Part shown: in pieces, positions 12,301 to 51,459 of the stretch
Position numbering within the stretch: position 1 is the first letter of the stretch
Layout of the letters: the number at the start of each line of letters is the position of its first letter
Source: Raillietiella orientalis
Lineage: Eukaryota
Assembly (NCBI GenBank): GCA_036172245.1
Contig: JAYWIR010000044.1
Coordinates: forward strand, 1,612,001 to 1,676,000
Reading direction: 5' to 3'
Length of the DNA stretch: 64,000 bases
The notes under the pieces: generated by a model
What the model saw: the letters and a program-made list of their open reading frames with translations, nothing else
What the model was told of the DNA's origin: nothing
Databases searched by the model: none
Program-made: the position numbers and the translations under genes

Positions 12301-12304
12301 GAGG

Positions 12305-14533
12305 TACACCTGCAGAGAAGAGATAAGAAAGGGAGTAGGAAAATTGGCAACCGCACATTGGGGCCGCCAGCCCTGCTGGGAAGGGACCCCCGGGCGGGGA
12401 AGGGTACCCTAGCGCTCGCAGTCGATCTTCATGAGGCGTTCGACTGTGTGGAAAAGAAACTCCTCTTGTAGCTCCTGCGAAGCATGGGCTTCCCATCCTA
12501 ATTCATTTCCTACCGGCGCTCTTGCTGACGGAACGCGATTATCTCAATCTGTTTCAGCAGTCAGAAGTTTTATGGCGTGCCGTTGCGGCGAATAAGGCAG
12601 GGTGATAGTCTCAGTTCCCAGCTTTTCAGCACCTACTTTGAGTTCGTGCTGAGAGCATATAGGGTGACTTTGGCACCCTTGCCTAGCTCGTGCCCCAGCA
12701 CGCTCTCATTTGCAGCGTATACCGACGATCTTTTGCTCTTGTTGCCGATTTCCACCCTGGAAAAGGCGTTCAGCAATTTCTTTGATCTTTTTAGCCGCGG
12801 GTCCGGACTACAGGTCAACAGGAGAAGTCGTCCGTGGTGCCAAGAGGTACAGCGTGGGCAAAACTGAAGGACTGGGTTCGTTTGGGTATCCCCATGGTTA
12901 AGTGCTTGGAGTACCTTGGTTTGCCATTGTGGGATTTTTCTGCGGCGGAAGCGTGGTCCAGCTGCCGCCGCAAAGTCGAGACGGTGGTCGGCCCGTTCCT
13001 GGAAGGCAAGTTTTACTTGCCGGAACTGGCCGTGATTTGGAACGCTTTCGCGGCCCCCATCCTTCGCCCCTTGCTTTTTGTTTGCACCGCCCACGTGGAA
13101 TGCCAGAAGCGGACAAACGACCTCCTTTGCATAGCCCTTTGGGCAAGGGGTGGCCCGAGCCCCATTGAAGAATTTGTGCGCTCCGCGTCGGGATGGCGGT
13201 GTCAGCCTTCTGACGCTGGAGCGCGTGGAGAATCAGCTGCGATGGCGCATCCTCGCCATCGCAGCGAAGCTATGGAGCACTTCTTGGTGCATTCCGGCCC
13301 GCCTCCTTACCAGCTGTGCGTCCCGGTGCGAGGGACTCGCGTCTATTCATCCGTGCTCCGGCGGGAAGATCCGAAGATGCGGCCTACTGCTCGGGCGCAT
13401 GGCCACCCTGGCAATGATGAACCGCTGGATGGTTTGCAGCCCTGACAACTCGTCCTCCTGGTTGGAGGAGAACATCGGCACCTGGGCTGTGATAAACAGG
13501 AGAAGCAACAAAACGTAGAATCGTCTCCGATTCGGCCCCTACGCCCGCTGCACGCCGCGGGATCTCCTGGAGAGTGCCGCTACAAGCACGTGAGCCGAAA
13601 CAACCTGCCTTGCTACGACGATGCCCTTCGTAAGGAGGGCGCTTCACAACAGCTGGACGCCAAGGAGGCAAGTCTCCTGCTGCATCGAGGGACGGGAGAA
13701 GAAAATGAGCGGGTGGACCAGGGGTCGACTGGCAGACGCCACCACCCCGAGCTTCCAGCCGCGTAAAATCTCTAGATGGGGCAAGCTGCTTGCCATCCCC
13801 AGGGTTGAGCTGAAGTGGCCCTCCGTAATGAAGGAGTCCAGGATCTTGCCCCTTAAGTGGCAAGAGTCGACATTGCTCCTGTTGCATTGGGGTCTACTTT
13901 GCAACGCGCGCCGCTTCCACTGGACGAGGGGAGCTGTGGATCCTGCGTGTGCCAGGTGCATGGAGCGGGAATAGCTCTCCCACCTTCTATTAAAATGGGA
14001 TGCCCTCCGACCACTTTGGGAACGGTTCGGGACGTCCCTCGGGCTCCCTGCGGGCAGTGCACCCAGAGACGTTTTCCACCTCCTCTTCGTGCGGGACTCC
14101 CTGCAGCCAGAAGCAGCTCTCGCAGCCCTGTGCTGCGTTCGAGGCATCGTCGCGGCTTGGAGCGATGCCAGCAGCGAAGATGAGGATTGGAACAAGAGCG
14201 ACGTCATCCAGGACGTTGTCAGCTTTTGCGGAGAGCTGCTCGAAGGCCCCATCTGGGAAGTATGCGGACAGAACTCGAGGGCTTCCTTCGACGGATGGGC
14301 CCTCCTCACAGCGTCCGGTGATGCTGAGCCTGCCCTCCAAACTCTTTTTGTTTGTTTATCTCTTTTATATTTCTTTTTATATTTCCCCTATCCCCTTTCG
14401 CTGTTGGAGAGTGCCACGCCGGTCCGCGTCCCGGTGTCCAGACAGCTCGCGTGTCTAAGACCGCAGTAGGGCCTTATACCAAGGATTATAAAGAGTTTTT
14501 TGAATAAACGAGCCGGGAGAACCCGGGTGGCAA
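12305..14533 (+). mobile_element. Family A LINE, 5'-truncated (RT to 3' end), decayed
   Basis: Matches 48808-51037; RQGDSLS, YTDD, EYLG, HWGLLCNARRFHWTRGAVDPACARC; ends ACCCGGGTGGCAA. Confidence 0.9.
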
Positions 14534-17147
14534 CGCCAACCTCGGCAGGAAGGTGGTTCATAGGGAACTCGTCGCAAAACTCCCAGAACTTGCGCTTGAA
14601 ATGGTCCCAGTCCTAAAGCGTCTGCAAGATGAAACCTCTAAAGAACCCGAAGAGATGCTCCGCGGCTTCCGGAAGTTCCATTTGGTTCCCCGGTAAGCGA
14701 CACGCAGATGACGGCGGACCCCTATCGCGTGGGCGCACCTCGAGTACGATCCGGTCGTGGTCCGACAGTTCCGACATTAAATTGCCGCGCCTGCCTACGC
14801 GTAAGCATAGGTGCTGGTCAAGAAACACGTCATCTATGCTGTCGGCCATTTCCGTATCTCCCGCGAACAATTTGCGCGTGTGCATCTCTGAGCACAGCTC
14901 GTTCACGCTGCCCCGAAGTGTGTCGGACGCACCTGACAGCAGGCGCAGGTTAAAGTCACCTGCGATTAGGTGCGCTTTGCGCACTCCCGCTTCATCCAGA
15001 TATTCGCGCCTAAGAGTAAGGAAGAAATCGCTCCTTGCCTTTGCCTTTAGCGCGTCGCTGCCGCTTGGGGCGAACACGTTGGTAATGGCAGATCGATGGA
15101 GTTCGACCACCTGATGGTCAACTGACCGACGCGACCGGCACTATCGAACCGTACGCCCTTTGCCGCGACCTCGACAGCTGGCCGAAGCAGAAACGCGACA
15201 CCGCAAGACTCAACGGTGCCGCAACGTTACATCAGCCGTCCACCCGATATACGCTCGATCTCCGTTGCTTGGTCTGCGGAGATCACGTGGATCTCTTGCA
15301 GAAGCACCAGGTCGAAAGATGCCAGGGTGGTGGCCACGTCTGGTCTCTTGCCGTAATCGCTTAGCCCGCTGACGTTACAACAGGCAATTCGCAGACGGCG
15401 GCAAGAGGCGATTCCCGACATTAACGCTGAGAACCTGGCGTTGCTGCACCTGTCAACGGACAGGTGGGAGGGACGAGTAACGGGACCGCGACCATCTCAG
15501 ACACTTGAATCACTTGGGCCACAGACTCTACCCTTTCCCTCCCTCCGGAGTCGCAGCGTGGGGTTACCTCTCGAGGAGAGTCCCCGGAGTTTCCCACTTT
15601 CTTCGCACGCTCGCTTCCCTCAATTATTTCTCCCATTTCCACGGACGGGATAATTTTGCGGGTAGCCATCTTCGTACGATTGGCCTTCGGGAGGGAGGCC
15701 GCGATGCCGCAGGCTGTGTATTCCGCCTCTGCGTCAGAGTTCTTAATCTCCGACTTCTTGATCGAGGTCGTACGCCTTGATGCCTTTTTCGCGTATTTGA
15801 GGGGACGCTGAAAGGACGCAGCGAGTTCCTCCGCCGCTCGCTCAAATGCGACGTCCTCGAGCATGCGTTCGACGACGGACGCCACCGCGGTGGCGATATC
15901 CTCCGGCATTAATTTGTCAAAGGGCAGAGAGTCGGCAGCGAAGAGTGCAATTTTGCCGCTCTGTTCGACAGAAGGAGTGCGCTTGATGACGACGTGGCAT
16001 TGTTTAATTTTTTCGCGACACGGCAAATTCTTGCTGCCTTTTGCGACGTTCTTTTGGTTTTAAACCTTGAGGTTTTTCTGCTTCTTCGATTGTACTACCT
16101 GCCATCCAGTTTCCTCGCCGTTTCCTAGACCTTGTCCGCATTTTCCGGGATCTCAAAGCTGGCCTTCACCTGGTGCACAATGGCTTCTTTTTAGCAACGT
16201 CTCGCTCGCGCACTGCCACAACTCTTTTTTTTTTGGCCGCTCGCTTCTTCGCATTCCGTGCGTACGCGAAGCGGACTACATTTTGCGGGCACACCGGAAG
16301 ACTGCGCCCGGGATGCTTGCATTGCTTGCACTGCAAGTAGGGGCACCTTTTTTTCAGGTGACCTGAAGTGCTGCTATGCCCGCAGAAATGCGGCTCACCG
16401 ACAAACCAGATGTCAACGGGTTCGCCGTTGACCTCCAGCTTGTTTGGTAGGGAGCAACCCTCGCGGACCGTGATGTGCGCGGAAGCCATACCGCAATTCA
16501 GGAGATCGTACTCCCAAAACGGAGTCGGCCTTTTCCACAACGCGTGGACAGTTCGAAATTTAAATAGTTCCTTTCGGACAGCCTCTTCGGCCATCCGGAA
16601 GGTGATTCCGAGGAGGTGGATCACGATAGATCTATCCTCCGTGATGAGAAGGAGCCGACGATCCCCTAAAGTTACAGGTGTACGGAGGAGACGCTGGGCA
16701 AGACTTACTTCTTTGCAAATCACCTTAACATACTGTCCACCACTTCTGATGGTCATCGCCTAGAGCTCCTCCTGGGGTACTTTGAGGGAGTGCATCGCTT
16801 TCGAGAAAGCGCGTGCACTCTGAAAGGAGTAAAGGTCGCCTACATTGTAGAGTAGAGGGGGATTGTACCCCTCCTCCAGGTAGGCTTTGAACTCAGCCGC
16901 AGCCGCATGGGTTGGCGCCGCAGCCACGGAACTCCAGCTTCTTCCTTGCGAGGGAGTCGCTTCTGTGGTAGCGGTTGCCCTCACATCCTTTAATTCAGAC
17001 GGCGACATAGACGTCGTTCTCTCCTTAACATTTTTGGTGGTCTCAGGCGTTGCTACCTAACCACCAACGAATCCACTGGCACACCAAAAAATAAAGAAAA
17101 AAATAAAACCACAAACGCTCAAGAGCGAAACAAAAACCCGTCCGCTC
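14534..17147 (-). mobile_element. Family I LINE, 5' half (5'UTR, ORF1 17008-15421, APE 15421-14534)
   Basis: 5' motif GAGCGGACGGGTTTTTGTTTCGCTC; CGHSSTSGHLKKRC; TAATG stop/start at 15421; LQEIH, GDFN, SDH. Confidence 0.88.
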
Positions 17148-17154
17148 TTGCTCG

Positions 17155-20690: not shown

Positions 20691-20699
20691 AAACAAACG

Positions 20700-24612: not shown

Positions 24613-24617
24613 CGGCA

Positions 24618-26740: not shown

Positions 26741-26748
26741 TCGAGCGC

Positions 26749-27263
26749 AGGGCGGACGTGTTTTCTCGGTGCTCCTCGGCGGCAATAACGCTCTCTAGGA
26801 GCAAGCGTTCTGTGGTTCAGTGGTTGATCAGGCAGCGAGGCCTGACACGACCACCAGTGAGTGCCAGAAGGCGGCGGCAACGTCGAGCCCAGAGGCGATG
26901 GAGGTGGGGGTATCCGCCCCCACAGAATCGGTCCCCGCTGCAGAGCGGGCGTGGAGCGCCGTCGTGGCGACACCATCGCCTGCAGCTGCAGCGGAATTAT
27001 CTACCTGTGTGGAGGATAGGTATAACCCCTCACTACTCTACAAGGTAGGAGATTTGTACTCTTCTGAGAGCGCGCGCGAATTCTCGAAAGGGATGCGCGC
27101 TCTCAATGATAAAGTGAAGGAGCACAGCGCGATGACCATTCGCAGCGGGGGTAGTACGTGGAGGTGATCTGCCAACAGGCAGATCTGGCCCAGCGTCTGC
27201 TCAAAACCACCGTGGTGATGGAGACACGCAGGCTCCTTCCCATTACGGTGGACCGCAGTATGG
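26749..27263 (+). mobile_element. Family D LINE, 5'UTR and start of ORF1
   Basis: Same 27-nt 5' end as the copy at 10226; YNPSLLYKVG...MTIRSGG. Confidence 0.85.
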
Positions 27264-27290
27264 TGTTCCATACTGCGGTCCACCGTAATG
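27241..27290. repeat. Perfect 23-bp inverted repeat with 4-nt loop at an element junction
   Basis: CATTACGGTGGACCGCAGTATGG-TGTT-CCATACTGCGGTCCACCGTAATG. Confidence 0.95.
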
Positions 27291-27318
27291 CCGGTGTAGT
27301 GTGGGTCCTCGGTGTCCG

Positions 27319-32445: not shown

Positions 32446-32670
32446 TCCCTTCCCGGCCCTCCAAACTTTTTTTTGTGGTTTGTTTTTCTCTTTAATTTCA
32501 TTTTTGTGTTCTCCCCCATCTCCCTCTACTGCTGAGGAGAGCCACACCGAGCTGCGTCCCGGTGTCCCGGCAGTTCCGGTATTGCGTGGCCGTCAGTAGG
32601 GCCTTGTACCTCGTTCTGTATTGATCGTTGAAATGTTTTTAATAAACGTCCCGGCGTATCCGGGTGGCAT

Positions 32671-35600: not shown

Positions 35601-36755
35601 GTCTCCGCCGGTTGCTCGAACTCCGAGAGAGCCGGGCGTGCTTGGGAAGGACAGTTATTGCGCCTAGGGGGACTTATTATTGCCCCGGATTCCCCGCACC
35701 CTTTCTTTTGCGGCTTCCCTGCCGCGAGAGGGGGCGCGCAGGGCTTCGCGTGCGAGGTTCCCTGCTGCTTTGGGGCGACATTACGACTCGCGTTTTTACC
35801 GTATTTCTGCCATGAGGTCTCCATGTGTTTCGCAGATTTTTTGTTTTTATCCGCGCTTTGTTTTTTAGGATGGAACTCCGCAGCTGCCTTTTTTCGCAAA
35901 AGATCCGGGCAATTTTTCAATTGGTGCCCGGTAAGCTTGCAATAACGGCATTTTCCGGAGGGGCATTTATCCAAAAAATGCACCTCCTTCCCGCATTGCT
36001 CGCACGTTCTTACTTTGTCCACGAACCACAGGTGAACGACCGTGTCTTTCACCTGTAGTTTGGTGGGCAGCAGACGGCGGTCCGGCATTGTAAGCCGGAC
36101 TTCAGCGACTCCGCTGTGTATGGACGGGAAGTCCTTGAGGTTGCTACGCACCCTCCACAGCGCATGGACCGTGGCGAATTTCGCGAACGCGTTCCGAATA
36201 TCAGTATCGGAGATTTCCGACTCGATGTCGAAAATCTCCACCACAAATAAGTCGTCCATGGCGGCCGGGAAGACCTTCTGGCCACGGATCTACAACGGGG
36301 TGCGCAGCAAGCGTTGCACAAGTGCAGCGTCTTTGCAACGCACCTTGAAATAGCCCATGTCTTTTACGGGCATAATGGCGAGAAGGTCCTCCTCCCGCAC
36401 GCCAACACGGGTCAGCTCATCGTTGAACTGATTCCCGTCGCGCGCAGAAAGAAAACCACTCACCTTATATCGGAGAGCAGGTCTATAGCCTTCAGCTACG
36501 TATGCCCGAAACTCCGACTCGTCGAGTGGCTTCCCTTTGACGGCTGCTGTGGCAGCAACGTCAGCAAAACTCCTCTCCATTGGCTAGAAAGACGAAGTGG
36601 AGGCGGCCGACGGTTCCGCGATTGCAGATCCGGATGCTGTTCCTCCAACTTCAGTACCTTCAAGTTGGGTCGACATCGTCGTCAAAATGTACGACGCCAA
36701 GATGAAGCGGATGAAAGCACGGAGACGAGAGCGAAGAAAAACACGTCCGCACTCG
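32671..36755 (-). mobile_element. Family B LINE, intact 5' end to RT YADD region, cut off at 32671
   Basis: ORF1 36676-34756 (CEQCGKEVHFLDKC, CRYCKLTGHQLKNC); ORF 32639-34708 is APE plus RT; close copy of 41942-45870. Confidence 0.93.
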
Positions 36756-36763
36756 GTTGAAAT

Positions 36764-37908
36764 TTATCAGCCGGTCACGCCGGGGCGTTTATTAATACTG
36801 ATAAACTGGTCAGGGACAATGTCCTTAACCAACAGAACGACAGAGAACATAGAAAAATTACCGGCACGCAGGCCTGGTAAACAAACCGCTCGCAGCGTGG
36901 GAGGAATGAGGGGAAACAAACAAAAATCAAAAACTGGAGAGAAGGGTAACGGGTTTTTGGTTAGGCTCCGTACTCACGGGGATTTAAACGATGAGCACTT
37001 AAAATGTTCCGGAGCCTATGGGGACGCGGGTGTAACAAGAAAATACAAAAATAGTTTATGGAGGGTAGGGCAATGATCACCGGGTTGGCCGCTGCTGAGC
37101 GTGTGTAAACCGGCTGCGTATTGCGGCGAGATACCTCTTTGTCTCCTCTGTCAAATGAGGCCATCTAGCGGATGCTTCCATGGAGAAGGATGCTTTGTTG
37201 ATTACCTGTTGGTGCTGTCCGTTGATTACCAACGCCTGGCGGACGGAAACTATAGCGCGTATGCAACCGATGGTTGCAATCCTTGCGCTTAGTGAAAGCC
37301 CGCTCGGCGTGAAGAATCGTCGCAGCAAGTCTCTTGCGTTGTCCACGGGATGCAATAGTTCTGTTGCCAGCCTACGCCACAGTCCTTGTAGGACACCGCA
37401 GTCCAGAAGTAGGTGCGGAATCGACTCCGTCGATCCGCACCGAACGCAGTTCGCAGACGCAAGTCCCCCGGAGTCACGATGCCAACGCTCGTTGTACTGA
37501 AAGCCCCAGTGAACGAAAAGCAGCATGGCATGTTTCCAAGCAAGGGGGAGCAGGGAACTCTCCATACACTATGGAGGGACTACAAGCTCTTCGGGGGTGA
37601 CAGCAAGTTCTTCTGCCCACCGGAGGAGTCCCTTTGCAGTAACACGAGGAGTGGCGGCGTCCGCCAACTCACTTGTCTTATAGGTGCCAAGGAGTTTGGT
37701 TTTTCCCGCTATCGTGCAGGAAACCTCCCACCTCGCCGGTTGGTAACTGTCGTTTCTTGCCCTGAGGGCAGACAGCGCTGCGGCAAGAGGCGTGGCAGCC
37801 AGGGTAAAAAACTTCACCTCGTCCTGCAGTACTTCTTCCAAGGATCGTGGAAAAAATTGGCGCAGGGGGCGAACATCTTCAGGGCGTATTCCTTTTAACG
37901 CCGCCCTC
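36764..37908 (-). mobile_element. 5'-truncated family B LINE with 12-bp TSD
   Basis: Matches ~46550-47692; CTCGGTTGAAAT flanks it at 36752-36763 and 37909-37920. Confidence 0.93.
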
Positions 37909-37912
37909 CTCG

Positions 37913-39626
37913 GTTGAAATCTCCCGCTATCAGGTGAGCCTACCGCACGTTCGTGTCCGCCAGCCAGTCGCGCTTCAGGGATTCCAGCAGCCTGGTACGG
38001 TCGCTGTATCCCTGTTTACCGCTGGGGGCGTACACATTCGTGACGATCAGTTCGATCGAGTCGGAGCAGCTGAGAATCAGCTGACCCACCCGACCGTCGT
38101 CATCGAAGCGCACGCCCTTCACGGCAGCGTCGATGGCGGGCTTCACGAAGAACGCGACCCCGCAGGTGTTGCGGAGGCAGCACCGCCAATACAACCGACC
38201 CCCCGCGATCATCTCGATCTCCTGGGCGTCTGCCGCGGTGATCACGTGGATCTCCTGCAGCAGGGCCAGGTCGAGCTCACGCAGGGTGTCGGCCGTATCT
38301 CGCCTGTTACCGTCGTCGCGCAGGCCGTTGACGTTCGAACAGGCGGCGCGAATCCGACAGCGACTGGCGAGCCCAGGTGTTACTCCTGGGAAGATGGCGA
38401 TGCGGCGTTCGCCACCTGTTGGGCTGGGACGCTAGGTGGAGGAGGAAGGTCAGGCGCTGCGTGCACCTTGTCCCCCTCCTCCATGGGTAACGGCGCGTCG
38501 AGCGCGTCACCCTCAGGTGGGGTCGCGCCTACCTGTTGGCCCTCCTCCATGGGGGCGGGCTGTTCAGGCTCGGCGACTGCAGGGAGGACTTCGCCCCTCT
38601 GCTCACCCTCCTCCATGGGGGTGGCCGGCTCGACGGCTTCCGAGCGTGGGAGTTCCCCCTCCGGGATTCCCACGCTACCGCTAGCTTCCTGCTTCTCCTC
38701 CTCGCTGGACGAGGGGAGGCGCCTCCTGGGTTTTTGGGACTTGCGTCCCGACTTCCTGGGGGGTGCCTCCGAGGAGGAGGATGCACTTCCAGCTTCCAGG
38801 TCCGACTCACCTGTGGGGGCCTTTTTCGCGGGAGCCGGCCTTCGCACGGCCTTGCGTGAGGGGTTCTCACGCTCCGCCAGCGTGGCCGCGAGCTCCTCCG
38901 CCGCGTTTGCGAACGCGGCGTCCTCGGTGTCGACCGGCGCGTCTCGCGGCTCACCCTCTGTTTGCACAGAGGGTTCGCCGTCGCGAACTTCGGGAGCGAC
39001 GGAAACGGCGAGGGGAGGCTCTTCGCCCCGGGTGGCCTCTTCCGGAACGACGATACGTTCCAGTGCCACCGTGCACTCGTGCACGGTTTTCGAACGCGGC
39101 CCGGGTTTTTTTTCCTTACCGGCCGGCTTCTCTTTCTTCTCCTTTAAAGGAGCTTTTCTCTCTTTTCTGGCTGCTACAAGTTGCCAGCCCTCTTCACCTT
39201 CCGCCTCTTGGGAAGGTCTATCCTCCGTCTTTTCTTTTGGAGGTTGAGGATCTGGCAGCTTCAGCCGGCCAGCGTCCGCCTTAGGTCTTCTGACCTTTAG
39301 TGCGCGTTTCCCCTGCGCCTTTTTCGCGGCAGGAGGAACCGGAGTGGGGCGTTTTAGGCACACACGTCGAACGTGGCCCTTCTCCCCGCACATGTTGCAT
39401 TGGATGTTAGGACACTACTTGCGAAGGTGTCCTACGGTATCGCAGTAGCCGCAATACCGGGGCTTTCCCACGTACCAGAGGTCCACGCTCTCTTGCGCGA
39501 CCTCCAGCTTGTGGGAAAGCTCACAGTCCTTACTTACGGTTACCCGCGCTGCATCCTGGCCTCCTAAATGGCGATTGAAGCTTTCAAATATTGTTGGCTT
39601 AGGTCACAGCGCGTGCACCTCGCCGA
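37913..39626 (-). mobile_element. Family A LINE fragment (ORF1 and APE up to GDFN)
   Basis: ORF 38380-39393 is nearly identical to 40461-41474; APE breaks exactly at the GDFN codons. Confidence 0.92.
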
Positions 39627-41941
39627 CTCGCTTGGCGAGTGGAAGTGTGTTTCCTTCGCTCCCGAGTGAGTCGACAGGAAGCGGTTTTTTCTTGTGTTGT
39701 TTGGTGTGGAACATCGTTGGTGTCCGATGGCAGCGATGCCTAAGGACACCACGATGGAGGTAGGTGTGGGAAAGGCTTGACCACCTTCACAGCCTAGAGA
39801 ATCAGGGGCGTCCGCCCCGGAATAACCCTCGCCGCCCAAGGCGAGGAGCTGGAGCGCTATGGTGGCCGCGCCGAGCGCGGAAACCGTGGCCGAGATGGCG
39901 GCGTACCGGGCAGCTGGGTACAAGCCCAGCTTGGTGTACCAGGTAGGCCCCTTATTTGACGGAAAAACGGCACGCGCGTTTTCGAAAGCGCTGCAAAACG
40001 CCGGTGTCAGAAAACAAGATCTTGACGGTTTGTCCGTTCTCAGCGGAGGTCAGCGAGTCGAGGTGGTGTGCAAGGAGATCACCTTGGCTCAGACTCTGAT
40101 CACCAACCGTTGAACGTCGACGACCGCAAGATCTTGCCGGTGACGACGGACCGCTCCGTGGTGGTCCATCTCACTGGAATAACGAGCCGTATGACTCGCT
40201 CTGCAGTAGCACAAGAACTACAAAAGTTCGGCGAGGTGCACGCGCTGTGGCATAAGCCAACAATCTTTAAAGGCTTCAATAGCCATTTCGGAGGCCAGGC
40301 TGCAGCGCGGGTAACCGTAAGTAAGGACTGTGGGCTTCTTCACAAACTGGAGGTCGCGCAAGAGAGCGTGGACCTCTGGTACGTGGTAAAGCCCCGGTAT
40401 TGCAGCTACTGCGATACCGTAGGACACCTTCGCAAGTAGTGTCCTAACATCCAATGCCACATGTGCGGGGAGGAGGGCCACGTTCGACGTGTGTGCCCAA
40501 AACGCCCCACTCCGGTTCCTCCTGCCGCGAAAAAGGCGCAGGGGAAACGCGCACTAAAGGTCACAAGACCTACGGCGGACGCTAGCCGGCTGAAGCTGCC
40601 AGATCCTCAACCTCCAAAAGAAAAGACGGAGGATAAACCTTCCCAAGAGGCGGAAGGTGAAGAGCGCTGGCAACTTGTAGCAGCCAGAAAAGAGAGAAAA
40701 GCTCCTTTGAAGAAGAAGAAGGAGAAGCCGGCCGGTAAGGAAAAAAAACCCGGGCCGCGTTCGAAAACCGTACGCGAGTGCACGGTGGCACTGGAACGTA
40801 TCGTCGTTCCGAAAGAGGCCACCCGGGGCGACGAGCCTCCCCTCGCCGTTTCCGTCGCGCCCGAAGTTCGCGACGGCGAACCCTCTGTGCAAACAGAGGG
40901 TGAGCCGCGCGACGCGCCGGTCGACACCGAGGACGCCGCGTTCGCAAAGGCGGCGGAGGAGCTCGCGGCCACGCTGGCGGAGCGTGAGAACCCCTCACGC
41001 AAGGCCGTGCGAAGGCCGGCTCCCGCGAAAAAGGCCCCCACAGGTGAGTCGGACCTGGGGGCTGGAAGTGCATCCTCCTCCTCGGAGGCACCCCCCAGGA
41101 AGTCGGGACGCAAGTCCCAAAAACCCAGGAGGCGCCTCCCCTCCTCCAGCGAGGAGGAGAAGCAGGAAGGTAGCGGTAGCGTGGGAATCCCGGAGGGGGA
41201 ACTCCCACGCTCGGAAGCCGTCGAGCCGGCCACCCCCATGGAGGAGGGTGAGCAGGGGGGCGAAGTCCTCCCTGCAGTCGCCGAGCCTGAACAGCCCGCC
41301 CCCATGGAGGAGGGCCAACAGGTAGGCGCGACCCCACCTGAGGGTGACGCGCTCGACGCGCCGTTACCCATGGAGGAGGGGGACCAGGTGCACGCAGCGC
41401 CTGACCCTCCTCCTCCACCTAGCGTCCCGCCCCAACAGGTGGCGGACGCCGCGTCGCCATCTTCCCAGGAGTAACACCTGGGCTCTGCAGTCGCCGTCAG
41501 ATTCGCGCCACCTTTTGCAACGTCAACGGGCTGCGCGACGACGGTAACAGGCGAGATACGGCCGACACCCTGCGTGAGCTCGACCTGGCCCTGCTGCAGG
41601 AGATCCACGTGATCACCGCGGCAGACGCCCAGGAGATCGAGACGATCGCGGGGGGTCGGTTGTATTGGCGGTGCTGCCTCCGCAACACCTGCGGGGTCGC
41701 GTTCTTCGTGAAGCCCGCCATCGACGCTGCCGTGAAGGGCGTGCGCTTCGATGACGACGGTCGGGTCGGTCAGCTGATTCTCAGCTGGTCCGACTCGATC
41801 GAACTGATCGTCACGAATGTGTACGCCCCCAGCGGTAAACAGGGATACAGTGACCGTACCAGGCTCCTGGAATCCCCGAAGCGCGACTGGCTGGCGGACA
41901 CGAACGTGCGGAAGGCTCACCTGATAGCGGGGGATTTCAAT

Positions 41942-41968
41942 CGAGTGCGGACGTGTTTTTCTTCGCTC
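41942..41968 (+). promoter_or_regulatory. Shared LINE 5'-terminal motif GCGGACG(T/G)GTTTT..(C)GCTC, candidate internal promoter (representative copy)
   Basis: Variants at nine 5' ends: 5851-, 10226+, 17147-, 22004+, 24612-, 26749+, 36755-, 39635+, 41942+. The function is inferred. Confidence 0.55.
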
Positions 41969-44900
41969 TTGTCTCCGTGCTTACATCCGCTTCATCTTGG
42001 CGTCGTACATTTTGACGACGATGTCGACCCAACTTGAAAATACTGAAGTTGGAGGAACAGCATCCGGATCTGCAATCGCGGAACCGACGGCCGCCTCCAC
42101 TTCCTCTTTCTCGCCAAGGAAGAGGAGTTTTGCTGACGTTGCTGCCACAGCAGCCGTCAAAGGGAAGCCACTCTACGAGTCGGAGTTGCGGGCATACGTA
42201 GCCGAAGGCTATAGACCTGCTCTCTGATATAAGGTGAGTGGTTTTCTTTCTGCGCGCGACGGGAATCAGTTCAACGATAAACTGTCCCGTGTTGGCGTGC
42301 GGGAGGAGGACCTTCTCGCCATTATGCCCGTAAAAGACATTGGCTATTTCAAGGTGCGTTGCAAAGACGCTGCACTTGTGCAACGCTTGCTGCGCACCCC
42401 GTTGTCGATCCGTGGCCAGAAGATCTTCCCGGCCGCTATGGACGACTCATTTGTTGTGGAGATTTTCGACATCGAGTCGGAAATCTCCGATACTGATATT
42501 CGGAACGCGTTCGCGAAATTCGCCACGGTCCATGCGCTGTGGAGGGTGCGTAGCAACCTCAAGGACTTCCCGTCCATACACAGCGGAGTCGCTGGAGTCC
42601 GGCTTACAATGCCGGTCCGCCGTCTGCTGACCACCAAACTACAGGTGAAAGACACGGTCGTTCACCTGTGGTTCGTGGACAAAGTGAGAACGTACGAGCA
42701 ATGCGGGAAGGAGGGGCATTGTTTGGATAAATGCCCCTCCGGAAAATGCCGTTATTGCAAACTTACAGGGCACCAATTGAAAATTTGCCCGGATCTTTTG
42801 CGAAAAAAGGCAGCCGCGGAGCTCCATCTTAAAAAACAAAGCGCGGATAAAAAGAAAAAGTCTGCGAAAAACCTGGAGACCTAGGCGCAATAGCTGTCCT
42901 TCCCAAGCACGCCCGGCTCTCTCGGAGTTCGAGCAACCGGCGGAGACGCCAATGGACAACGGCGATAAGGGCACTTCCAGTACCGTCAGATCCATTCCTT
43001 CACCTACTGCAGTGGCTGAGAAGCCCAAATCGGGTAAGAAGGGTTGTGCCGTGTCGACTTCGAAAGTCGGCAAAAAAGTATCCGTGTCGCGATCCAACAC
43101 CGCGAAAGCGGAGAAAAATCTCACGCCGTCGCAGTCGGAGAGCAAGCTCTCGACTGGCGCGGATGCCATGCCAACGGAGGGATTAGAAACCATTCCGAAG
43201 GCAGCGTCCATGACGAGCGTGGCGGAGCTATCGAAAGTGCTCCCGTCCAAAGACGCGGATGGCTTCAAAGATGGCAATGGAGCACAATCTCCATTTACGG
43301 CGCAACGCGAAGTGAGGAACCGTAATGAAGTAAAGGAGACTTCCGCAAAAGTCCCTCGTGCAACTGCCCGTGAGCACTCTGAAAACAGGCGCGCCGGGAA
43401 AGCAGCCGTCACCAAAAGCGATGCTCTGGTGACGGAAAACGAAAACAGGACAGCTGTCGATCCAGCAGAAACTGTCACTGCTTCGCGGAAGGCCGAAACC
43501 CGATCGAACATGCGCCGGTCGGACTCCGAAATGGATGCCGTTCCGATCACCGAGACGAGGACAACTCGTTCAAAAGCGTGTGCGCGCCGAACAAAAGTAG
43601 GCAGCGAGGCAACGCTCGCCGCGAAGCAACGCGGAGTCTCCAGGAAACCCGACGGGGTTAAGCCTGACGTGGAGGCATTACATGCATGCAGCACGACGGA
43701 GGACGGTGGCGACCGTCCATTCCAGCCAGTCGTGCTGCTCGCCGTCTGCTCGCCGGATAAAGCGAGCAAAAAGCCGCCACCTTCCCAGCAGTAATGCGGG
43801 GAATCGCGTCTTCTCGTCGTCTGTCCGTAACGTGTTGGAACTTGAACGGACTACAGCACGACGAGAAGAGGCGATTAGTAGCCAACGCCCTGCGCCCCTT
43901 CGACCTCGCGCTCCTGCAGGAGATTCACGTAATCTCCGACGAGCAGGCAGCCGAAATCGCAGAGCGCGCAAGCGGAACGCTACATTGGCGGTGCGGCGGC
44001 GCACACACGTGCGGCGTCGCGTTCCTCGTAAGAGGAAAAATGGCGGAAGCGGTGCGTGGTGTTCGTTTCGATGACGACGGACGGATAGGCCAGCTTGTCA
44101 TCAAGTGGTCCGAGTCCATCGATCTCGTCGTCACGAACGTCTACGCGTCGAGTGGCTCTCGCTAACTCGAAGAAAGAGTAGCTTTCTTTGGTGAGGTGCA
44201 GAGCAACTGGCTCAACAACTCCGGCTTCCAAGTGACGCACCTCGTCCCTGGGGACTTCAATGTCCGCCTGCTCTCCGACGATTGGAGCCGCCCGAGGGAG
44301 CGCGCGCTGCACATCGAGATGTGCGCGTCCGTGCGCGCCGCCAACTTGATGGTCAGCGAACCTGGAATGGAAAGATCGCTCGATCACGTTTTCCTCGATG
44401 AAAACCTGCATTCGCGTGTGGGTAGGAGAGGAAGATTGTTGACTGAGCTTTCTGACCACTACAGGTTGGAGTTTGAGGTCCTTCCGCCAGGCAGGGGGCC
44501 TCCGTTGCAAAGGTGGAGGATGCAGGCGGATTGGCTTAGCCAACCGGAGGCTGCGGAGCATCTACGTGGATACCTCCGAGGCTTTGCCATTCAAGAACTT
44601 GCGGACTGGGACGATCTCAAAAGATCTGTCCGCGAGTTCTGTTGCCAATTACCCTTGCACCGGCTTCCACGCGGTTTCGGAGAGGGCGTGGCCAACAGTA
44701 GAGACTTTCTGCAGGCCCGCACGTTTTCGAGACGCGCGGATGTCGGGCGTCTCGCAGAGTACAAGGCGAGGGCCCAGCGCCAGGTCTGGCAGTCCGGAGC
44801 AGCATGCCTTTTGGACGACAAGGGCCAGGAATTTTCGGCCTCAGCCGAGGTACGCCGCATTGTGAGACGCTACTACTCCTCGCTCTACGCGGAATCCCCT

Positions 44901-47662
44901 ACTGAGGATATTCTTGCTTAGATCTCAGGATGCTCGTGTTGTCGGCGAGGAGGAACGCGAACGTCTCGACGAGCCCTTCACGGCGGATGAATTTTCGTCC
45001 GCCATCGCTGGGCTGAAGAGATGAAAGGCGCCCGGCGAGAATGGGCTCCCTGCAGTGTTTCATCAGTGCTTTCCAGTGGAGCTCATTCCCTTGATGCTAA
45101 AACTCGCGACGCTGATGAGGGAATCCGGGAATGTCCCAGATTCCTTCCGCTCAGCGACGGTGCGTCTCCTGCCGAAAGGCGGAGACTTGCGCCAACTTAA
45201 CCACTGGCGTCCGATCACCTTGGTGAACTCGGACGTCAAGTTGTTTTCCAAGCTGTGGGTCGCGCGGTTAGGAAGAATCGCGGAATCTGTGGTGAGCCCG
45301 GAACAAACCTACGCGGTTCCGGGACGATCCATGGAGGCGAACATCCATTTCGCGCGTACATGCATGCAGCTCCAGGAAGTTGTGGCACAGCAAAGCCAGG
45401 CTGCTGCGAAAGTCACTGCCGCAGGCAAAAAGAACAGGCGCCGACGGCAGGAGGGAACGCCAGGTGCCTTGGCGGTCGCGGTCGATCTCCACAAGGCGTT
45501 CGACTGCGTAAACCAGAAGCTGCTTTTGGAGCTTATGGAACGCCTTGGGTTCCCGGCGCAACTCCTGCTGTATTTGCGCGCGTGCTGACGCCACGCGCTA
45601 ACCTGCATCACTTTTAGAGGCTGCCGCGTGTATGGTATTCCCGTACGTAGGGGTATCCGACAGGGCGACAGCTTAAGCCCGTTGCTCTTCAGCATCTTCT
45701 TTGAGTTGGTGCTAAGAGCATACAGGCTGACGCTGTCTCACTTGCCAAGCTCCTGCCCGGGAACGCCTGCTGTGGCCGCCTACGCTGATGACCTGCTTCT
45801 TCTGCTCCCCATGTCCACCCCGGCGTCCAGTGTCGAGGATTTCTTCGAGCTGATTCGTCGGGGAGCGGGCGTGAGCGTGAACAGAGAGCAGAGCGTGGTG
45901 GTTCCTGTGGGTACGTCGTGGGAGGGGCACTCCGACTGGATCCGCCTGGGGATATCCACGGGCAGGTACTTTAAGTACCTTGGCGTTCCGTTGGGCGCTT
46001 TCGGCGCAACCGAAGCGTGGGCGGACTGTCTTCAGAAAGCAGAGTTTGCCATGAGCCCGTTCTAAAACGGCAAGTTTACCTTGCAGGAACGGGCGACTGT
46101 TTCGAACACCTTTGTGGCCCCCCTCCTCCGTCCCCTGTTTTTTGTTTTGAACCCCCCCTATGCGGCGAAACAGCGGGCTAAGCGCATGCTCAGGAACGCT
46201 CTCTGGGGTCCGGCGAGATCCAGGATCCGCCTTAAAGAATTGTCAGCTCCGCGTCGGGATGCTGGTTTGGGTATCCTGACAATGGAGCGAATCGGACTGC
46301 AGGTGCAGTTCCGACTGCTTGCACTGTGTGCCCAGCTATGGACATCCCCCCTGTGTGTGCCAGCTCGCATTCTCTTGCGGAGATGCGCCGGCAGCGGAGG
46401 ATTTCTCTCGCTTTTGCCGGGCACTCAATACAGGAAGCGGGGTTTCGGGTTTCCATTGCGGCAGTTGACCGCACTTCTGGAAGCACACTCGTGGATCTCC
46501 TGCCGCCCAATGAACTTTGAAGCTTGGCGGCAGGAGTCTGTTGAATCCTGGGCGGCGTTCCAAGGAATACGCCCTGAAGATCTTCGCCCCCTGCGCCAAT
46601 TTTTTCCACGATCCTTGGAAGAAGTACTGCAGGACGAGGTGAAGTTTTCTACCCTGGCGGTCACGCCTCTTGCCGCAGCGCTGTCTGCCCTCAGGGCAAG
46701 AAAGGACAGTTACCAACCGGCGAGGTGGGAGGTTTCCTGCACGATAGCGGGAAAAACCAAACTCCTTGGCACCTGGAAGACAAGTGAGTTGGCGGACGCC
46801 GCCACTCCTCGTGTTACTGCAAATAGACTCCTCCGGTGGGCAGAAGAACTTGCTGTCACCCCCGAAGAACTAGTAGTCCCTCCACAGTGTATGGACAGTT
46901 CGCTGCTCCCCCTTGCTTGGAAACAAGCCGTGCTGCTTTTCGTTCACTGGGGTTTTCAGTGCAACGAGCGTTGGCATCGTGACTCCGGGGGACTTGCGTC
47001 TGCGAACTGCGTTCGGTGCGGATCGACGGAGTCGATTCCGCACCTACTTCTAAACTGCGGTGTCCTACAAGGACTGTGGCGTAGGCTGGCAACAGCACTA
47101 TTGCATCCCGTGGACACCGCAATTGACTTGCTGCGACGATTCTTCACGCCGAGCGGGCTTTCACTAAGCGCAAGGATTGCAACCATCGGTTGCATACGCG
47201 CGATAGTTTCCGTCCGCCAGGCGATGGTAATCAACGGACAGCACCAAGAGGTAATCAGCAAAGCATCCTTCTACATGGGAGCATCCGCTAGATGGCCTCA
47301 TTTGACAGAGGAGACAAAGAGGAATCTCGCCGCAAAACACCGCCGGTTTACACACGCTCAGCAGCGGCCAACGCGGTGATCATTGCCCTACCCTCGATAA
47401 ACTATTTTTGTATTTTCTTTTAACACCCCCGTCCCCATAGGCTCCGGAACATTTCAGGTGCTCATCGTTTAAATCCCCGTGAGTACGGAGCCTAACAAAA
47501 AACCCGTAACCCTTCCCTCCAGTTTTTGATTTTTGTTTGTTTCCCCTCATTCCTCCCACGCTGCGTGCGGTTTGTTTACCAGGCCTTCGTGCCGGTAATT
47601 TTTCTATGTTCTCTGTCGTTCTGTTGGTTAAGGACATTGTCCCTGACCAGTTTATTATTATT

Positions 47663-47692
47663 AATAAACGCCACGGCGTGACCGGGTGATAA
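47663..47692 (+). other. Shared LINE 3'-terminal signal AATAAACG + CCCGG-loop-CCGGGT hairpin (representative copy)
   Basis: Fourteen copies (three lacking a clean AATAAAC), each at an element 3' end. Confidence 0.85.
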
Positions 47693-50600
47693 ATTTCAAT
47701 TTCCGCCTGCTAACAGGTGAGCCGGAAACACAAGTGAACGCGATGAACGAGTTGTGCGCCGCTATGCGTGCGCGCAACTTGTTCGCGGGTGAGAAAGGAA
47801 TGGTCCGCAGCATCGACCACGTCTTCCTGGACGCTGACCTGTGTTCACGCGTCGGCAAACGGGGGAGGGTTGTGTCGACGTTGTCGGACCATTCCCGGCT
47901 AATTTTCGAGATGCGGCCTCGCGACAAAGGACCGCCATCCAGGGATTGGCGTCTGCCGGGGGACTTGACGCTACTCTCAGGTGCGAAGGAACACCTTCGC
48001 GAATACCTGAGTGGCGTCACGCGCAGGAATCTCCAGGACTGGGACCTTTTTCAGGAATCGGTCCGCGAGTTCTGTGAGCAGTTTCCCCTGGATCGCCTGC
48101 CCCCCGGATTCGGCGAGGGTGCTCGCAACCATCGGGCCTGATTACAGGCTCGTAGGTACGAGAGAACCCTTAATGTCCGTCGCCTGGCTGAGTACCGCGC
48201 CGGGGCCGAACGCCAAGCCTGGCAATCCGGGTCGGCCAGCTTCCTGGACGACCAGGGCCGGGAATGTTCGTTCCCGGCGTCGGTACGCCATCTCGTGCGG
48301 AGTTTTTATTCCTCCCTTTACGCAAGGGAGCCCCCGGATCGAAACGCTTCTCGGCGCTTGCTTCCGGATGGCACCCCGGCAATAGGGGAGGAGGAAATGG
48401 AAAGCCTCGACGAGCCTTTTACCACCGGCGAAATTCTCGCCGGTATCAAAAGGCTCAAGAGGCGTAAAGCTCCAGGGGAAGACTGCTTGCCCGCGGAGTT
48501 CTTTCAGAGCTTCGCGGAAAAGCTGGCGCCCCTGCTGCTTAAGCTGATCAGGCTGATTCGAGACGAAGGCGATGTTCCCGCCTCGTTTCGGTCAGCCAGA
48601 GTGAGGCTCCTTCCGAAAGGGGGAGACCTCAGGAATTTAAAGAACTGGCGTCCGATCACGATCGTGAATACGGACGCCAAGTTGATAGCAGGGCTATGGG
48701 CTTCGCGTCTGGGGCAGGTGGCAGAATCCGTAATTAGTCCGGAGCAGACTTATGCTGTTCCCGGTCGAAGTATGGATGCCAACCTCTTCTTCGCAAGCAC
48801 ATGGGTGCATCTGCAGAGAAGAGAAAAGAAAGGGATAGGGAAAGTCGGCAACCCCACATTGGGGCCGCCAGCCGGGTTGGGAAGGGACCCCCGGGCAGGG
48901 AAGGGGGCCCTAGCGCTCGCAGTCGATCTCCACAAGGCGTTCGACTGTGTAGACCAGGAACTCCTCTTGGAGCTCCTGGGTCGCATGGGCTTCCCACCCT
49001 CCCTGATTTTCTACCTGCGCTCTTGCTGGCGGAATGCGATGATTACCGTCTGTTTCAGTGGACAAAAGGTGTATGGCGTGCCGGTGCGGCGGGGCATAAG
49101 GCAGGGCGATAGCCTAAGCCCCCTGATCTTCAGCACCTACTTTGAGTTGGTGCTGAGAGCGTACAAGGTGACTTTGGCCCCTTTGCCGAGCTCGTGCCCC
49201 GGCACGCCCGCCGTAGCAGCGTACGCCGACGATCTTCTTCTCTTGTTGCCAATGTCCACCCCGGCAAAGGCGGTCGGAGACTTCTTCGATCTGCTCAGCC
49301 GCGGGACCGGACTGCAGGTTAACAGGGCGAAGTCGTCGGTTGTGCCAATAGGTGCGGCGTGGGCAGGGCAGCAGGACTGGGTCCGTCTGGGGATCCCCAC
49401 GGCGAGGTGCTTCAAGTACCTTGGTGGGCCGTTGGGGGACTACTCCCCTGCGGAAGCGTGGTCCAGCTGCCTCCAAAAAGTCGAGACGGTGATCGGCCCG
49501 TTCCTGGAAGGCAAGTTTCACTTGCCGGAACGGGCCGCGGTTTGGAACGCCTTTGCGGCCCCCATCCTCCGCCCCTTGCTTTTTGTTTGCCCTCCCACCG
49601 TGGAATCCAAGAAAAGGACGAAGGACCTCCTCCGTATCGCCCTTTGGGGCAAGGGGAGGCCCCGAGTCCCACTGAAGGACTTGTGCGCTCCGCGTCGGGA
49701 CGGCGGTCTTGGCCTCCTGACGCTGGAGCGACTGGAGAAGCAGCTGCGGTGGCGAACCCTCGCCATCGCAGCGAAGATGTGGTGCACCTCTTGGTGCACT
49801 CCGGCCCGCCTCCTGGCCAGCCGTGTGTCCCGGTGCGATGGACTCGCGTCTTTTCTTCTCAGGCGTGGCCGGAAGATGCGAAGATGCGGCCTACTGCTCG
49901 GGCGCATGGCAAGATTGGCCAAGGAGAACAGCTGGATGGTTTGCTGCCCCGCCAACTTCCCCGCCTGACTTGAGGAGAATATTGGAACGTGGGCAGTGGT
50001 TCACCAGAGAAGCCACGAGACGTGGAATCGTCTCCGATGCAGCCCCTACGCCCGCTGCACGCTGCGGAATCTCCTGGAGAGTCCAGCAAGATGCAGCTGG
50101 GCAGAGACGACCTGCTTAGCTACGGAGCTGCCCTTCCTGAGGAGGGCACTTCACAGCAGCCGGACGCCAAGGTGGCAAGTCTCCTGCTGCATCGAGGGAC
50201 GCGAGAAGTTGATCAGCGGCTGGACAACAGGAGAACTGGCAGACGCCACGACCTTGAGCGTCCAGCCGCGAGGACTAAGAAGATGTGGCGAGCTGCTGGC
50301 CATCCCTATGGATGTGCTGAAGTGGCCCCTGCTTCTTCAGGAATCCAGGGTCCTGCCCCTTGAGTGGAAAGAGACGGCGTTGCTGTTGTTTCATTGGGGT
50401 TTACCCTGCAACGCACGCCGCTCTCACTGGACAAGAGGAGTTGTGGATCCTGCGTGTGTCAGGTGCGGAGAGCGGGAATCGCTCTCCCACCTTATTGTGG
50501 ACTGTGCTGCCCTTCGTTTCCTTTGGGAACGGTTTGGGACGATCCTCGGTCTCCCAACGGGCAGTTCCCCTAGAGACGTTCTTCGGCCCCTCTTCGTGAA

Positions 50601-51037
50601 GGACGCCCTGCAGCCAGCCGCAGCCCTTGCAGCCTTGTGCTGCGTCCGAGGCATCGTGGCGGCATAGAGCGACACCAACAAGGAAAAAGTGGGTCAACAC
50701 GCGAGGGATGTCATCCCATATGCCCAACGCTTCTTGCGAAGAGCTGCTGGATGGCCCCAACTGAGGAATATACGGATGGACCTCGAGGGCTTCCTTCAAC
50801 GGATGGGTCCTCCTCTCAGCGAACAGTGATCCCTTCCCTGCCCCCCAACCTCACTTGTTTGTTTGCCTTTTTGTTTTTATTTTTGTTTTTCCCCATCCCC
50901 TTTCGCTGCCGGGGAGTGCCACGCCTGGCTGCGTCCCGGCGTCCCGGTAGGTCCCGTGCATAAGGCCGTGAGCGGGGCCTGGAACCGCAATTGTAGAGTT
51001 TTTATGAATAAACGCTCCGGGCGTACCCGGGTGGCAA

Positions 51038-51450
51038 CGCCGAATCCCCGGGGCAGACGTTGCACAGGGAACTCTTTGCAGAACTCCCGGACCGAGTCCT
51101 TAAATAGGTCCCAATCCGCGAGACTCTGGATGCTGACGCCTTGCAGGAATTCGCGAAGATGTTCTTTCGCTCCTGACAGGCGCATCCAGTCCTCTGGGAT
51201 ACGTTAATCCCTGGATGGTTTCGGCGATGCTCCCCGGATACGCCAAGACGTTTATTAAAAACATTTCGACAGTCAATACAGATCGTGGTACAAGGTCCCA
51301 CTGACGGCCACGTAATGCCGGACCTTCCGCTTCACCGGGACGCAGCCCGGTGTGGCTCTTCTCGGCAGTGAGAGGGGATGGGGGAAAAAACAAAAAGAAA
51401 AATAAACCAGAAAACAACAACAAAAAAAAAAATTGGTGCACAAATTATTC
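51038..51450 (-). mobile_element. A-related APE-RT linker fragment (51038-51226) plus an A-related 3'UTR (51227-~51450)
   Basis: Matches 29556-29737 and 32470-32670 respectively. Confidence 0.85.
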
Positions 51451-51459
51451 ATGCTGATC

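Follow-up and report, generated by a model that had tools for sequence, protein, structure and literature searches.

CGCC(GAA) as a putative target word of a LINE family nested among its own relatives in Raillietiella orientalis

The stretch analysed here, referred to as the window, comprises 64,000 nucleotides of Raillietiella orientalis contig JAYWIR010000044.1 (positions 1,612,001 to 1,676,000). Nearly all of its part 1-54029 (52-62% G+C) consists of nested fragments of one group of retrotransposons that lack long terminal repeats (non-LTR), i.e. long interspersed nuclear elements (LINEs). The 3' end of one family of these elements, designated family A, is followed directly by CGCC in 4/4 copies and by CGCCGAA in two of them. 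Based on our observations, we suggest, with a probability of roughly one half, that this reflects a real target preference, in which the target is broken 5' of CGCC(GAA), mainly as a result of the nick specificity of the apurinic/apyrimidinic (AP)-type endonuclease of the element.

Family-A 3' junctions

With the 3' untranslated region (UTR) of family A used as a blastn query, just four copies were found in the window, and a regular-expression search for the tail agrees with this result. The copies and the sequences that follow them are given below; junctions are marked by a slash and inferred nicks by a caret.

12303 to 14533, plus strand: A1, a 5'-truncated copy with open reading frame 2 (ORF2) from about amino acid (aa) 493 to the end, the 3' UTR and the tail ...AATAAACG-hairpin-TGGCAA (tblastn, blastn)
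14533 (last base) and 14534 (flank), plus strand: 3' junction of A1, ...GGCAA/CGCCAAC
14534 to 14537, plus strand: CGCC after A1, which opens host H1, a minus-strand LINE, at its endonuclease codons ...L-P-A-E-V-G/
27291 to 32670, plus strand: A2, near full-length, with ORF1 (27866-28855), ORF2 (28951-32445, one in-frame stop) and tail TGGCAT
32670 (last base) and 32671 (flank), plus strand: 3' junction of A2, ...GGCAT/CGCCCGC
32671 to 32674, plus strand: CGCC after A2, which opens an interrupted minus-strand copy of another family, B (B', 32671-36763)
47693 to 51037, plus strand: A3, the 3' part of a full-length copy (A-full), with ORF2 from aa 122 to the end, the 3' UTR and tail TGGCAA
51037 (last base) and 51038 (flank), plus strand: 3' junction of A3, ...GGCAA/CGCCGAA
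51038 to 51226, minus strand: H3, a scrap (189 bp) left from an endonuclease gene similar to that of A2 (about aa 202-262 of ORF2), 91% identical to A2
51227 (last base) and 51226 downward (flank), minus strand: 3' junction of A4, ...AGCAT/CGCCGAA
51227 to 51437, minus strand: A4, about 210 bp of 3' UTR only, A2-like, with tail GAGCAT and 84.6% identity to the A2 tail

The first-pass annotation had placed family A immediately before CGCC(GAA), and all four junctions that it quoted, as well as CGCCGA at 39621-39626, read as claimed. Against the background of the nest (1-54000, both strands), where the frequency of CGCC is 0.0071, the probability of CGCC at 4/4 junctions is 2.5e-9. The probability that any single 4-mer is common to four junctions is 1.35e-7 (2.4e-5 for three junctions), and that of at least two of four flanks opening with CGCCGAA is 1.3e-7. 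The whole data set consists of these four 3' junctions and a few 5' junctions from a single window. The four junctions fall on three host positions, two of them on aa 262 of the endonuclease, one on its aa 202 and one in the reverse transcriptase (RT) region of B. Both ends of the scrap H3 are CGCCGAA, in inverted orientation, and each adjoins an A-type 3' end.

Searches outside the window gave no further family-A junction. The A-tail pattern had no matches in metagenome_contigs or genome_contigs, and a looser pattern had none in viral_contigs; its 11 matches in genome_contigs were discarded as bacterial chance hits in coding or terminator-like DNA without LINE context, a number close to a hand estimate for 19 fixed bases in 596 Gb. 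A locus search with the C-terminal ORF2 alignment confirmed none of the 261 stretches that matched the pattern. Comparison of sequencing run X1 (DNA contigs, 6% of sampled words) with 32000-51999 at 80% likeness showed that related copies are present, among the matches listed a 3755-nt contig with about 97% identity over 33032-36751. The joints seen in this run at 32666 and 39620 (side 32-40 nt) were too poorly readable to be counted as further junctions.

The CGCC as part of the host DNA

Uninterrupted counterparts of the broken hosts are present in the same nest.

45860 to 45880, minus strand: unoccupied counterpart of the 32671 site in an intact B copy, TCACGCTCA/CGCCCGCTCCCC (...GCTCA/CGCCCGCTCCCC), CGCC at 45868-45871
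29728 to 29743, plus strand: unoccupied target in the A2 endonuclease gene, GGATTCGGCG^AAGAGG (G260-F-G-E-E), CGCC at 29734-29737
48106 to 48121, plus strand: unoccupied target in the A3 endonuclease gene, GGATTCGGCG^AGGGTG, CGCC at 48112-48115

The host at 32671 is a minus-strand copy of B, and its 95%-identical uninterrupted twin reads TCACGCTCA/CGCCCGCTCCCC. The host at 51038 is represented by a 181-bp fragment with 91.1% identity to A2. For the site at 39621, the intact relative reads CACCT/CGCCGAAC (40227-40241, reverse strand; CGCC at 40230-40233). The earlier statement that an uninterrupted host copy explains the CGCC at 32671, 39621 and 51038 is thus borne out at 45860-45880, 40227-40241 and 29728-29743 / 48106-48121, respectively. 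The opposite possibility that it had named, CGCC belonging to the element whatever the host, is not what the intact host copies show.

As uninterrupted host copies (91-95% identity) already hold CGCC at the breakpoints, the word is to be regarded as target and not as element; judging from these comparisons, it is target DNA beyond reasonable doubt in two of the four cases and plausibly so in the other two. At 14534, the nearest intact relative of host H1 is 77-86% identical and has CAAC at this place, so this case is merely compatible with a host-derived CGCC. At 51226, intact relatives read GGAC/CGCC/ATC (A2 and A3) and GGTC/CGCC/GTC (H1), so that CGCC is expected there.

Independent hits on one codon

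The junctions at 14534 and 51038 fall on the same codon, E-F-P-x-x-x-L-P-x-x-x-G/ (G262/E263 in the numbering of A2 ORF2), with H1 broken at E-F-P-M-N-H-L-P-A-E-V-G/ and the host at 51038 at E-F-P-V-Q-R-L-P-R-G-F-G/. The first-pass annotation had described the two sites as one homologous position in two host families, and this view is upheld by the identity between the hosts, which is 60.7% mutually and 76.8% and 91.1%, respectively, to other families. The inserted tails of A1 and A3 are 78% identical. A duplicated single insertion would make the two hosts nearest relatives, which they are not; the same codon was therefore struck twice, and on this sequence comparison 14534 and 51038 are independent events.

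The full-length copy and the 5' junctions

37909 to 39626, minus strand: X' (A5), a 5'-truncated A-type copy, 96% identical to 40228-41945, 5' end TCGGCG...
39621 to 39626, plus strand: left copy of the A-full target-site duplication, CGCCGA (right copy 51038-51043)
39627 to 41941, plus strand: 5' part of A-full, with nine extra nucleotides CTCGCTTGG, 5' end CGAGTGGAAG..., ORF1 and ORF2 aa 1-124
41942 to 47692, plus strand: family-B element nested in A-full at the G-D-F-N codons, with an 8-bp duplication ATTTCAAT at 41934-41941 / 47693-47700
12295 to 12301, plus strand: TTCGGCG in host E6, the reverse complement of CGCCGAA, ending 1 nt before the A1 5' junction

The segments 40228-41941 (ORF1 and ORF2 aa 1-124) and 47701-51037 (ORF2 aa 122 to the end) are parts of one A element split by B. 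The left flank of this element ends with CGCCGA and its right flank opens with CGCCGAA (51038-51044), which constitutes a 6-7-bp target-site duplication. Since B made an 8-bp duplication in the same nest, short duplications are considered normal for this group.

The flanks of A-full derive from two sources, the left one from X' and the right one from the endonuclease scrap. The word is native to both hosts, the sequence being CACCT/CGCCGAAC for the X site and CTCTT/CGCCGAAT for the one in the endonuclease; because both hold it, they would have been joined through TTCGGCG before the arrival of A-full. Alternatively, two A insertions at two words recombined later. In either case, by sequence, the breaks lie exactly 5' of CGCCGAA in two further host sequences.

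The same word accompanies other 5' ends. That of X' lies on a TTCGGCG word (39621-39627) which is also found in the endonuclease-site host. The upstream flank of A1 is antisense E6, ending ...GTGCTTCGGCG-A at 12295-12302, and the TTCGGCG at 12295-12301 is E6's own (TGCCGCA stands in the B homologue). As the CGCCGAA 7-mer occurs 16 times in 54 kb, the probability that at least two of three 5' junctions lie within 8 nt of one is about 2e-5, a post hoc estimate.

Two fold-back signatures were seen at 5' ends: just before A2 (27241-27290), a perfect inverted repeat, with a 4-nt loop, is formed by the final 23 nt of host E12, and the nine extra bases of A-full are inverted (ACTCGC/GCGAGT) against its own first bases (39626-39640). 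The 5' end of A-full, CGAGTGGAAGTGTGTTTCCTTCGCTC, resembles that of B, CGAGTGCGGACGTGTTTTTCTTCGCTC. Twin priming or a fold-back palindrome was considered for the head-to-head arrangement of X' and A-full and rejected, as identity between the arms is 96% and not 100%, and the spacer of 601 nt represents the 5' end of the element itself. Likewise, E6 and H1 are not halves of one host deleted by A1, since E6 is B-like (66%) and H1 is E8-like (86%).

Proposed mechanism and alternative explanations

We propose that the RNA of family A would be recognised via its conserved 3' module, consisting of AAUAAACG, a 5-bp hairpin and UGGCA(A/U), and that target-primed reverse transcription would occur at breaks directly 5' of CGCC, the preferred sequence extending to about CGCCGAAWCC. 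The primer strand would then be 5'-(TTC)GGCG^A(R)G-3', reverse transcription would begin at the end of the recognised 3' module, and GGATTCGGCGAAGAGG is the candidate target sequence of the endonuclease domain, which may be able to cut either strand at the word. A cut of the top strand 6-7 nt away would give the CGCCGA duplication, and a cut at a second TTCGGCG farther off would lead to loss of the intervening DNA and to non-contiguous flanks, as in A1. The presence of the word in conserved endonuclease codons (G-F-G/E) and in the A-type 5' region would direct the element into its own relatives, so that the nest would grow.

Under this model, the primer-strand nicks at the 3' junctions would be GGATTCGGCG^AAGAG, GGAGCGGGCG^TGAGC, GAGGTTGGCG^ and GGTTTCGGCG^, and the cuts at the 5' junctions TTCGGCG^AGGTG and TTCGGCG^AGGTA. 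In 5/5 sites read from intact copies, the sequence after the presumed nick is purine-rich (^AAGAG, ^AGGGT, ^AGGTG, ^AGGTA and ^TGAGC). Because a second-strand cut does not involve the 3' end of the RNA, the TTCGGCG at the 5' junctions of A1 and X' favours the endonuclease, from which we infer that it, and not RNA pairing, is the probable cause.

Several observations weigh against this proposal. There are merely four 3' junctions, all within one window. Matching flanks are found at A-full only; those of A1 and A2 are non-contiguous, so deletion-type insertions or later rearrangements must be assumed, and the 5' flank of A2 has no GGCG word. The TTCGGCG at the A1 5' junction was noticed post hoc, and the boundary is resolved just to 12302-12310. 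The nest holds 16 CGCCGAA words, and several of these are empty, including the A-type endonuclease sites at 29731 and 48109, and CGCC itself occurs 746 times, which means that the word by itself is insufficient. The bases GAAACC after CGCC at 51226, an in-frame difference of 6 nt, have no counterpart in intact relatives; they could be a Pro-Lys insertion in a variable linker or could be RNA-borne. Finally, the tail of fragment E1, an RT relative of A2 and A3, is of another kind, and no CGCC stands after it (GGGTTTCAATCGAGG).

The same junctions would also result if a read-through RNA ending ...GGCA(A/U)CGCC(GAA) paired with nicked ...GGCG-3', the endonuclease itself being perhaps rather unspecific; the choice of site would then perpetuate itself from the donor to the new copy. 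We consider this possible but the less probable cause. The junction data fit it equally, and precedents are R1Bm, whose RNA needs downstream target sequence for accurate initiation, and SART1Bm, which pairs short target-like words (both as given in an excerpt of PMC7265360, citing Anzai 2005). The flank at 51226, CGCCGAAACC, departs by six bases from GGAC/CGCC/ATC, and if GAAACC is donor flank carried by the RNA, this would favour read-through. Also, the short A4 (about 210 bp) beside the 189-bp host scrap could be a template-switch product begun at the 3' end of the RNA. On the other hand, pairing at the RNA 3' end leaves TTCGGCG at two 5' junctions unexplained, and at 14534 (AAC) and 32671 (CGC) the flanks diverge straight after CGCC, so that at most 4 nt could pair. 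It could further be argued that CGCC represents the last four bases of the element and that no site preference exists, as the tail alignment has it in line in each of the four A copies as well as E5, and in most families A(A/T)CG stands equally far from the hairpin, readable as a conserved terminus. This explanation, to which we give very little credence, is largely refuted by the uninterrupted hosts that hold CGCC at 45868-45871, 29734-29737, 48112-48115 and 40230-40233 (reverse). In addition, the CG after E3 lies in Asp-Asp codons of the host common to B, and the left CGCCGA of the A-full duplication belongs to host X' and is remote from every A 3' end.

Later events in the repeat nest (ectopic recombination, microhomology-mediated joining or an assembly error), resolving at common CGCC(GAA) words, would account for the non-contiguous flanks in two of the three long A copies. 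Besides, 32671-39626 and 40228-47699 form a rearranged inverted duplication (95-96% identity), and contigs of run X1 have other, poorly readable joints at 39620 and 32666. Rearrangement would not, however, respect the exact 3' end of the A tail, where 4/4 breaks lie; the A-full duplication and the 8-bp B duplications in the same region are clean, and the same codon was struck in two different host families, all of which makes such an origin of the junctions improbable. Still less can be said for a coincidence, or common ancestry, of a few junctions that are partly copies of each other and happen to have a GC-rich 4-mer in common. There are only four junctions in all and CGCC is the 8th commonest 4-mer in the nest; nevertheless, the probability of a common 4-mer is about 1e-7 for four junctions and 2.4e-5 for three, and the hosts differ (the RT region of B, the endonuclease at aa 202, and the endonuclease at aa 262 from two families with 61% identity), so that we regard this as extremely improbable.

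A bolder extension of the endonuclease model, which we put forward very tentatively and consider rather doubtful, is that the LINEs of the nest form a guild, each family landing on a different conserved codon block of a common endonuclease gene. Family A would cut both strands at its 7-nt word in G-F-G/E (TTCGGCG^A) and lie antisense, B would land in the catalytic G-D-F-N (ATTTCAAY) in sense, and selection on these codons would renew the targets. If true, such self-homing could explain Zepp-like, possibly centromeric, LINE islands with sharp edges.

The common 3' end

In every family the 3' end is made up of AATAAACG, a hairpin of 5 bp and a short tail rich in A. A regular-expression search found AATAAACG exactly 12 times in 11 element tails, each time followed by the CCCGG...CCGGG hairpin and a short tail (E6 carries it twice, flanking its hairpin, at 11412-11444, minus strand). 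Three further tails are degenerate (E3 at 6440-6463, E5 at 8108-8138 on the minus strand and E22 at 53993-54029), and the hairpin arms align in 14 tails. In none of these 14 was a poly(A) run found; they end 4-9 nt past the hairpin with at most five A's. When folded as a single sequence the hairpin is weak (z from -3.6 to +1.0), so that a 'stringent-type' 3' end is better argued from conservation across families. By sequence, the family-A 3' end fits a 'stringent-type' LINE as defined in an excerpt of PMC3747384. In all 14 tails AATAAA is found 22-27 nt ahead of the element end (e.g. 14503-14533 and 47663-47692), like a canonical polyadenylation signal.

Family B and other families of the nest

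Family B sits in sense orientation at the G121-D-F-N124 codons of A-type endonuclease genes, and the empty site is preserved in A2 (29311-29322), with GGGGATTTCAAC at 29314-29322. In the inverted copy (36756-37917, minus strand), a 5'-truncated B of 1.15 kb and a full-length B stand in tandem at the same ATTTCAAC word, which means that this site was used at least twice. The two inverted 7-kb blocks, 32671-39626 and 40228-47699, are 95-96% identical in each of the segments compared in both (A 5' part, B 5' part, B body and B 3' part), with the B 3' part placed differently; that the A and B parts have diverged to the same extent suggests copying of the A-with-B composite as one unit.

Across all families, CG follows the tail at nine of the 13 distinct 3' junctions, with B counted once (A1-A4, E3, E5, E6, E8 and E10), and the flanks of B, E12 and E22 do not open with CG. 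The E1 junction is ambiguous, being either GGGT/TTCAATCGAGG or GGGTTTCAAT/CGAGG, so that the total is 9 or 10 of 13. At f(CG)=0.082 the corresponding probabilities are 9e-8 and 3e-9. The CG is followed by CC in the A copies and E5 only, which amounts to 5 out of 9-10 junctions with CG (P between 4e-4 and 8e-4, conditional on CG). An 'ACG' after the hairpin as the terminus of the elements was rejected, as the CG is host-encoded where hosts are readable (A2, A3, E3 and probably E1).

8101 to 8138, minus strand: E5, of another family, with a degenerate tail, ...TGTGAAT/CGCCACT, the sole non-A tail followed by CGCC

The first-pass annotation had extended the CGCC rule to family A 'and relatives'. 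This stands for the A 3' module and for the more distant E5 (GTGAAT/CGCC) and fails for E1, which lacks CGCC in spite of 86-88% identity in the RT; the rule is tied to the A 3' module and not to all RT relatives. E1 (1-2115) is a mosaic, in which the RT segment is 86-88% identical to A2 and A3, the C-terminal part and 3' UTR are about 68% identical, and the tail is GGGTTTCAAT; this structure points to module exchange between families. The tail or flank of E1, TTCAAT, resembles the target of B.

Classification of family A

The A2 ORF at 28951-31509 matches Exo_endo_phos (5.4e-7, 30 bits against a cut-off of 24.5) and RVT_1 (3.5e-22) in Pfam, and both domains recur in the ORF of B' (32639-34708, minus strand). 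A zf-RVT match in A2 ORF2 (6.4e-4, 20.8 bits) is under the 27.5-bit cut-off; an alignment of four copies shows invariant Cys/His columns for this putative C-terminal Cys-rich zinc-binding domain. The closest solved protein to A2 ORF2 in a PDB sequence search is human LINE-1 ORF2p (5.3e-41, residues 304-702), and R2-type entries gave 6e-14 or weaker. Of 5.8 billion proteins searched, only 13 matched at E <= 1e-3, the best with 68% identity and the next with 28%. The 68%-identity relative is encoded on a 2870-bp JGI contig, and one match (26% identity) bears the automatic name 'Transposon TX1'. A protein atlas returned generic LINE clusters only.

Signatures of insertion are present, i.e. 5' truncation in A1, A4, X', E3 and Z', and short target-site duplications at A-full and B. 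The hosts are other LINEs of the same group at 4/4 A 3' junctions, at both B sites and wherever those of E1 and E3 are identifiable. On these sequence features, family A is classed as an L1/Tx1-like, endonuclease-bearing non-LTR retrotransposon.

Comparison with known systems

The Tx group, placed inside the L1 clade, inserts target-specifically, according to an excerpt of PMC3747384. Family A resembles its members in being a LINE with AP-endonuclease, RT and a putative C-terminal zinc finger and with apparently target-specific insertion. Tx1L of frogs sits at one sequence within another transposon, whereas the target of family A is a short word (CGCC, at best CGCCGAAWCC) at several places and not one unique site in one host repeat; some of the targets are codons within the genes of related LINEs, whichever way these are oriented.

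Zepp and ZeppL of green algae are L1-clade LINEs that pile up by nested self-insertion, mostly as 3' parts owing to 5' truncation, and no defined target word is stated for them in an excerpt of PMC8226300. The nest, in which at least 20 LINE fragments are stacked within 54 kb and which stops sharply at 54029, resembles the islands so described. Zepp has a poly(A) tail, whereas the elements of the family-A nest lack one and carry AATAAA.

R1Bm, a silkworm LINE specific for 28S rDNA, has an AP-type endonuclease that cuts both target strands sequence-specifically (PMC1919474, in part). Such two-strand cutting, together with the RNA-assisted initiation mentioned above, maps onto the two readings of family A. 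R1Bm differs in that it belongs to the R1 clade and uses one fixed host-gene site with a long recognition sequence, in contrast to the short degenerate word and the LINE hosts of family A. Human LINE-1 has the same domain order as family A, 5' truncation and short target-site duplications, and its insertions can carry target deletions. Its nicks fall at the T-rich TTTT/AA, and poly(A) serves it for priming ('relaxed' type), whereas family A has a conserved 3' hairpin, no poly(A) and a GC-rich landing word.

Target-selective LINEs and self-nesting LINE islands (Zepp/ZeppL) are already known. Possibly new are the particular short GC-rich word and its location in conserved endonuclease codons of related LINEs, although no literature search for CGCC-type targets was made. 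Cases in which a defined word accounts for the landing of a LINE in its own relatives have seldom been documented. Should the preference for CGCC(GAA) in conserved endonuclease codons hold genome-wide, it would offer a simple testable mechanism for the growth and confinement of LINE nests, and a GC-rich short-word specificity of an AP-endonuclease to set beside the T-rich sites of L1 and the long sites of R1 and Tx1. The exact ends of the family-A element may also be used by annotators.

Organisation of the nest and its surroundings

A tblastn map with the A2 ORFs places about 20 LINE fragments on both strands over 54 kb. In E2 (2021-3944, minus strand), the part that matches ORF2 aa 1-31 is separated by about 1.1 kb from the one that matches aa 28-235, and most of this extra stretch is spanned by a single 533-aa ORF (2021-3622) for which no Pfam family was found. 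The search of Rfam returned no family across the whole window.

The nest ends sharply at the E22 tail (GAAAAA/CTACC, 54029), and from 54 kb on the G+C content falls to 38-46%. Seven ORFs in 54029-64000 had no Pfam match. This region contains a 3.5-kb inverted repeat, 55861-59381 / 59858-63371, with 97% identity between its arms.

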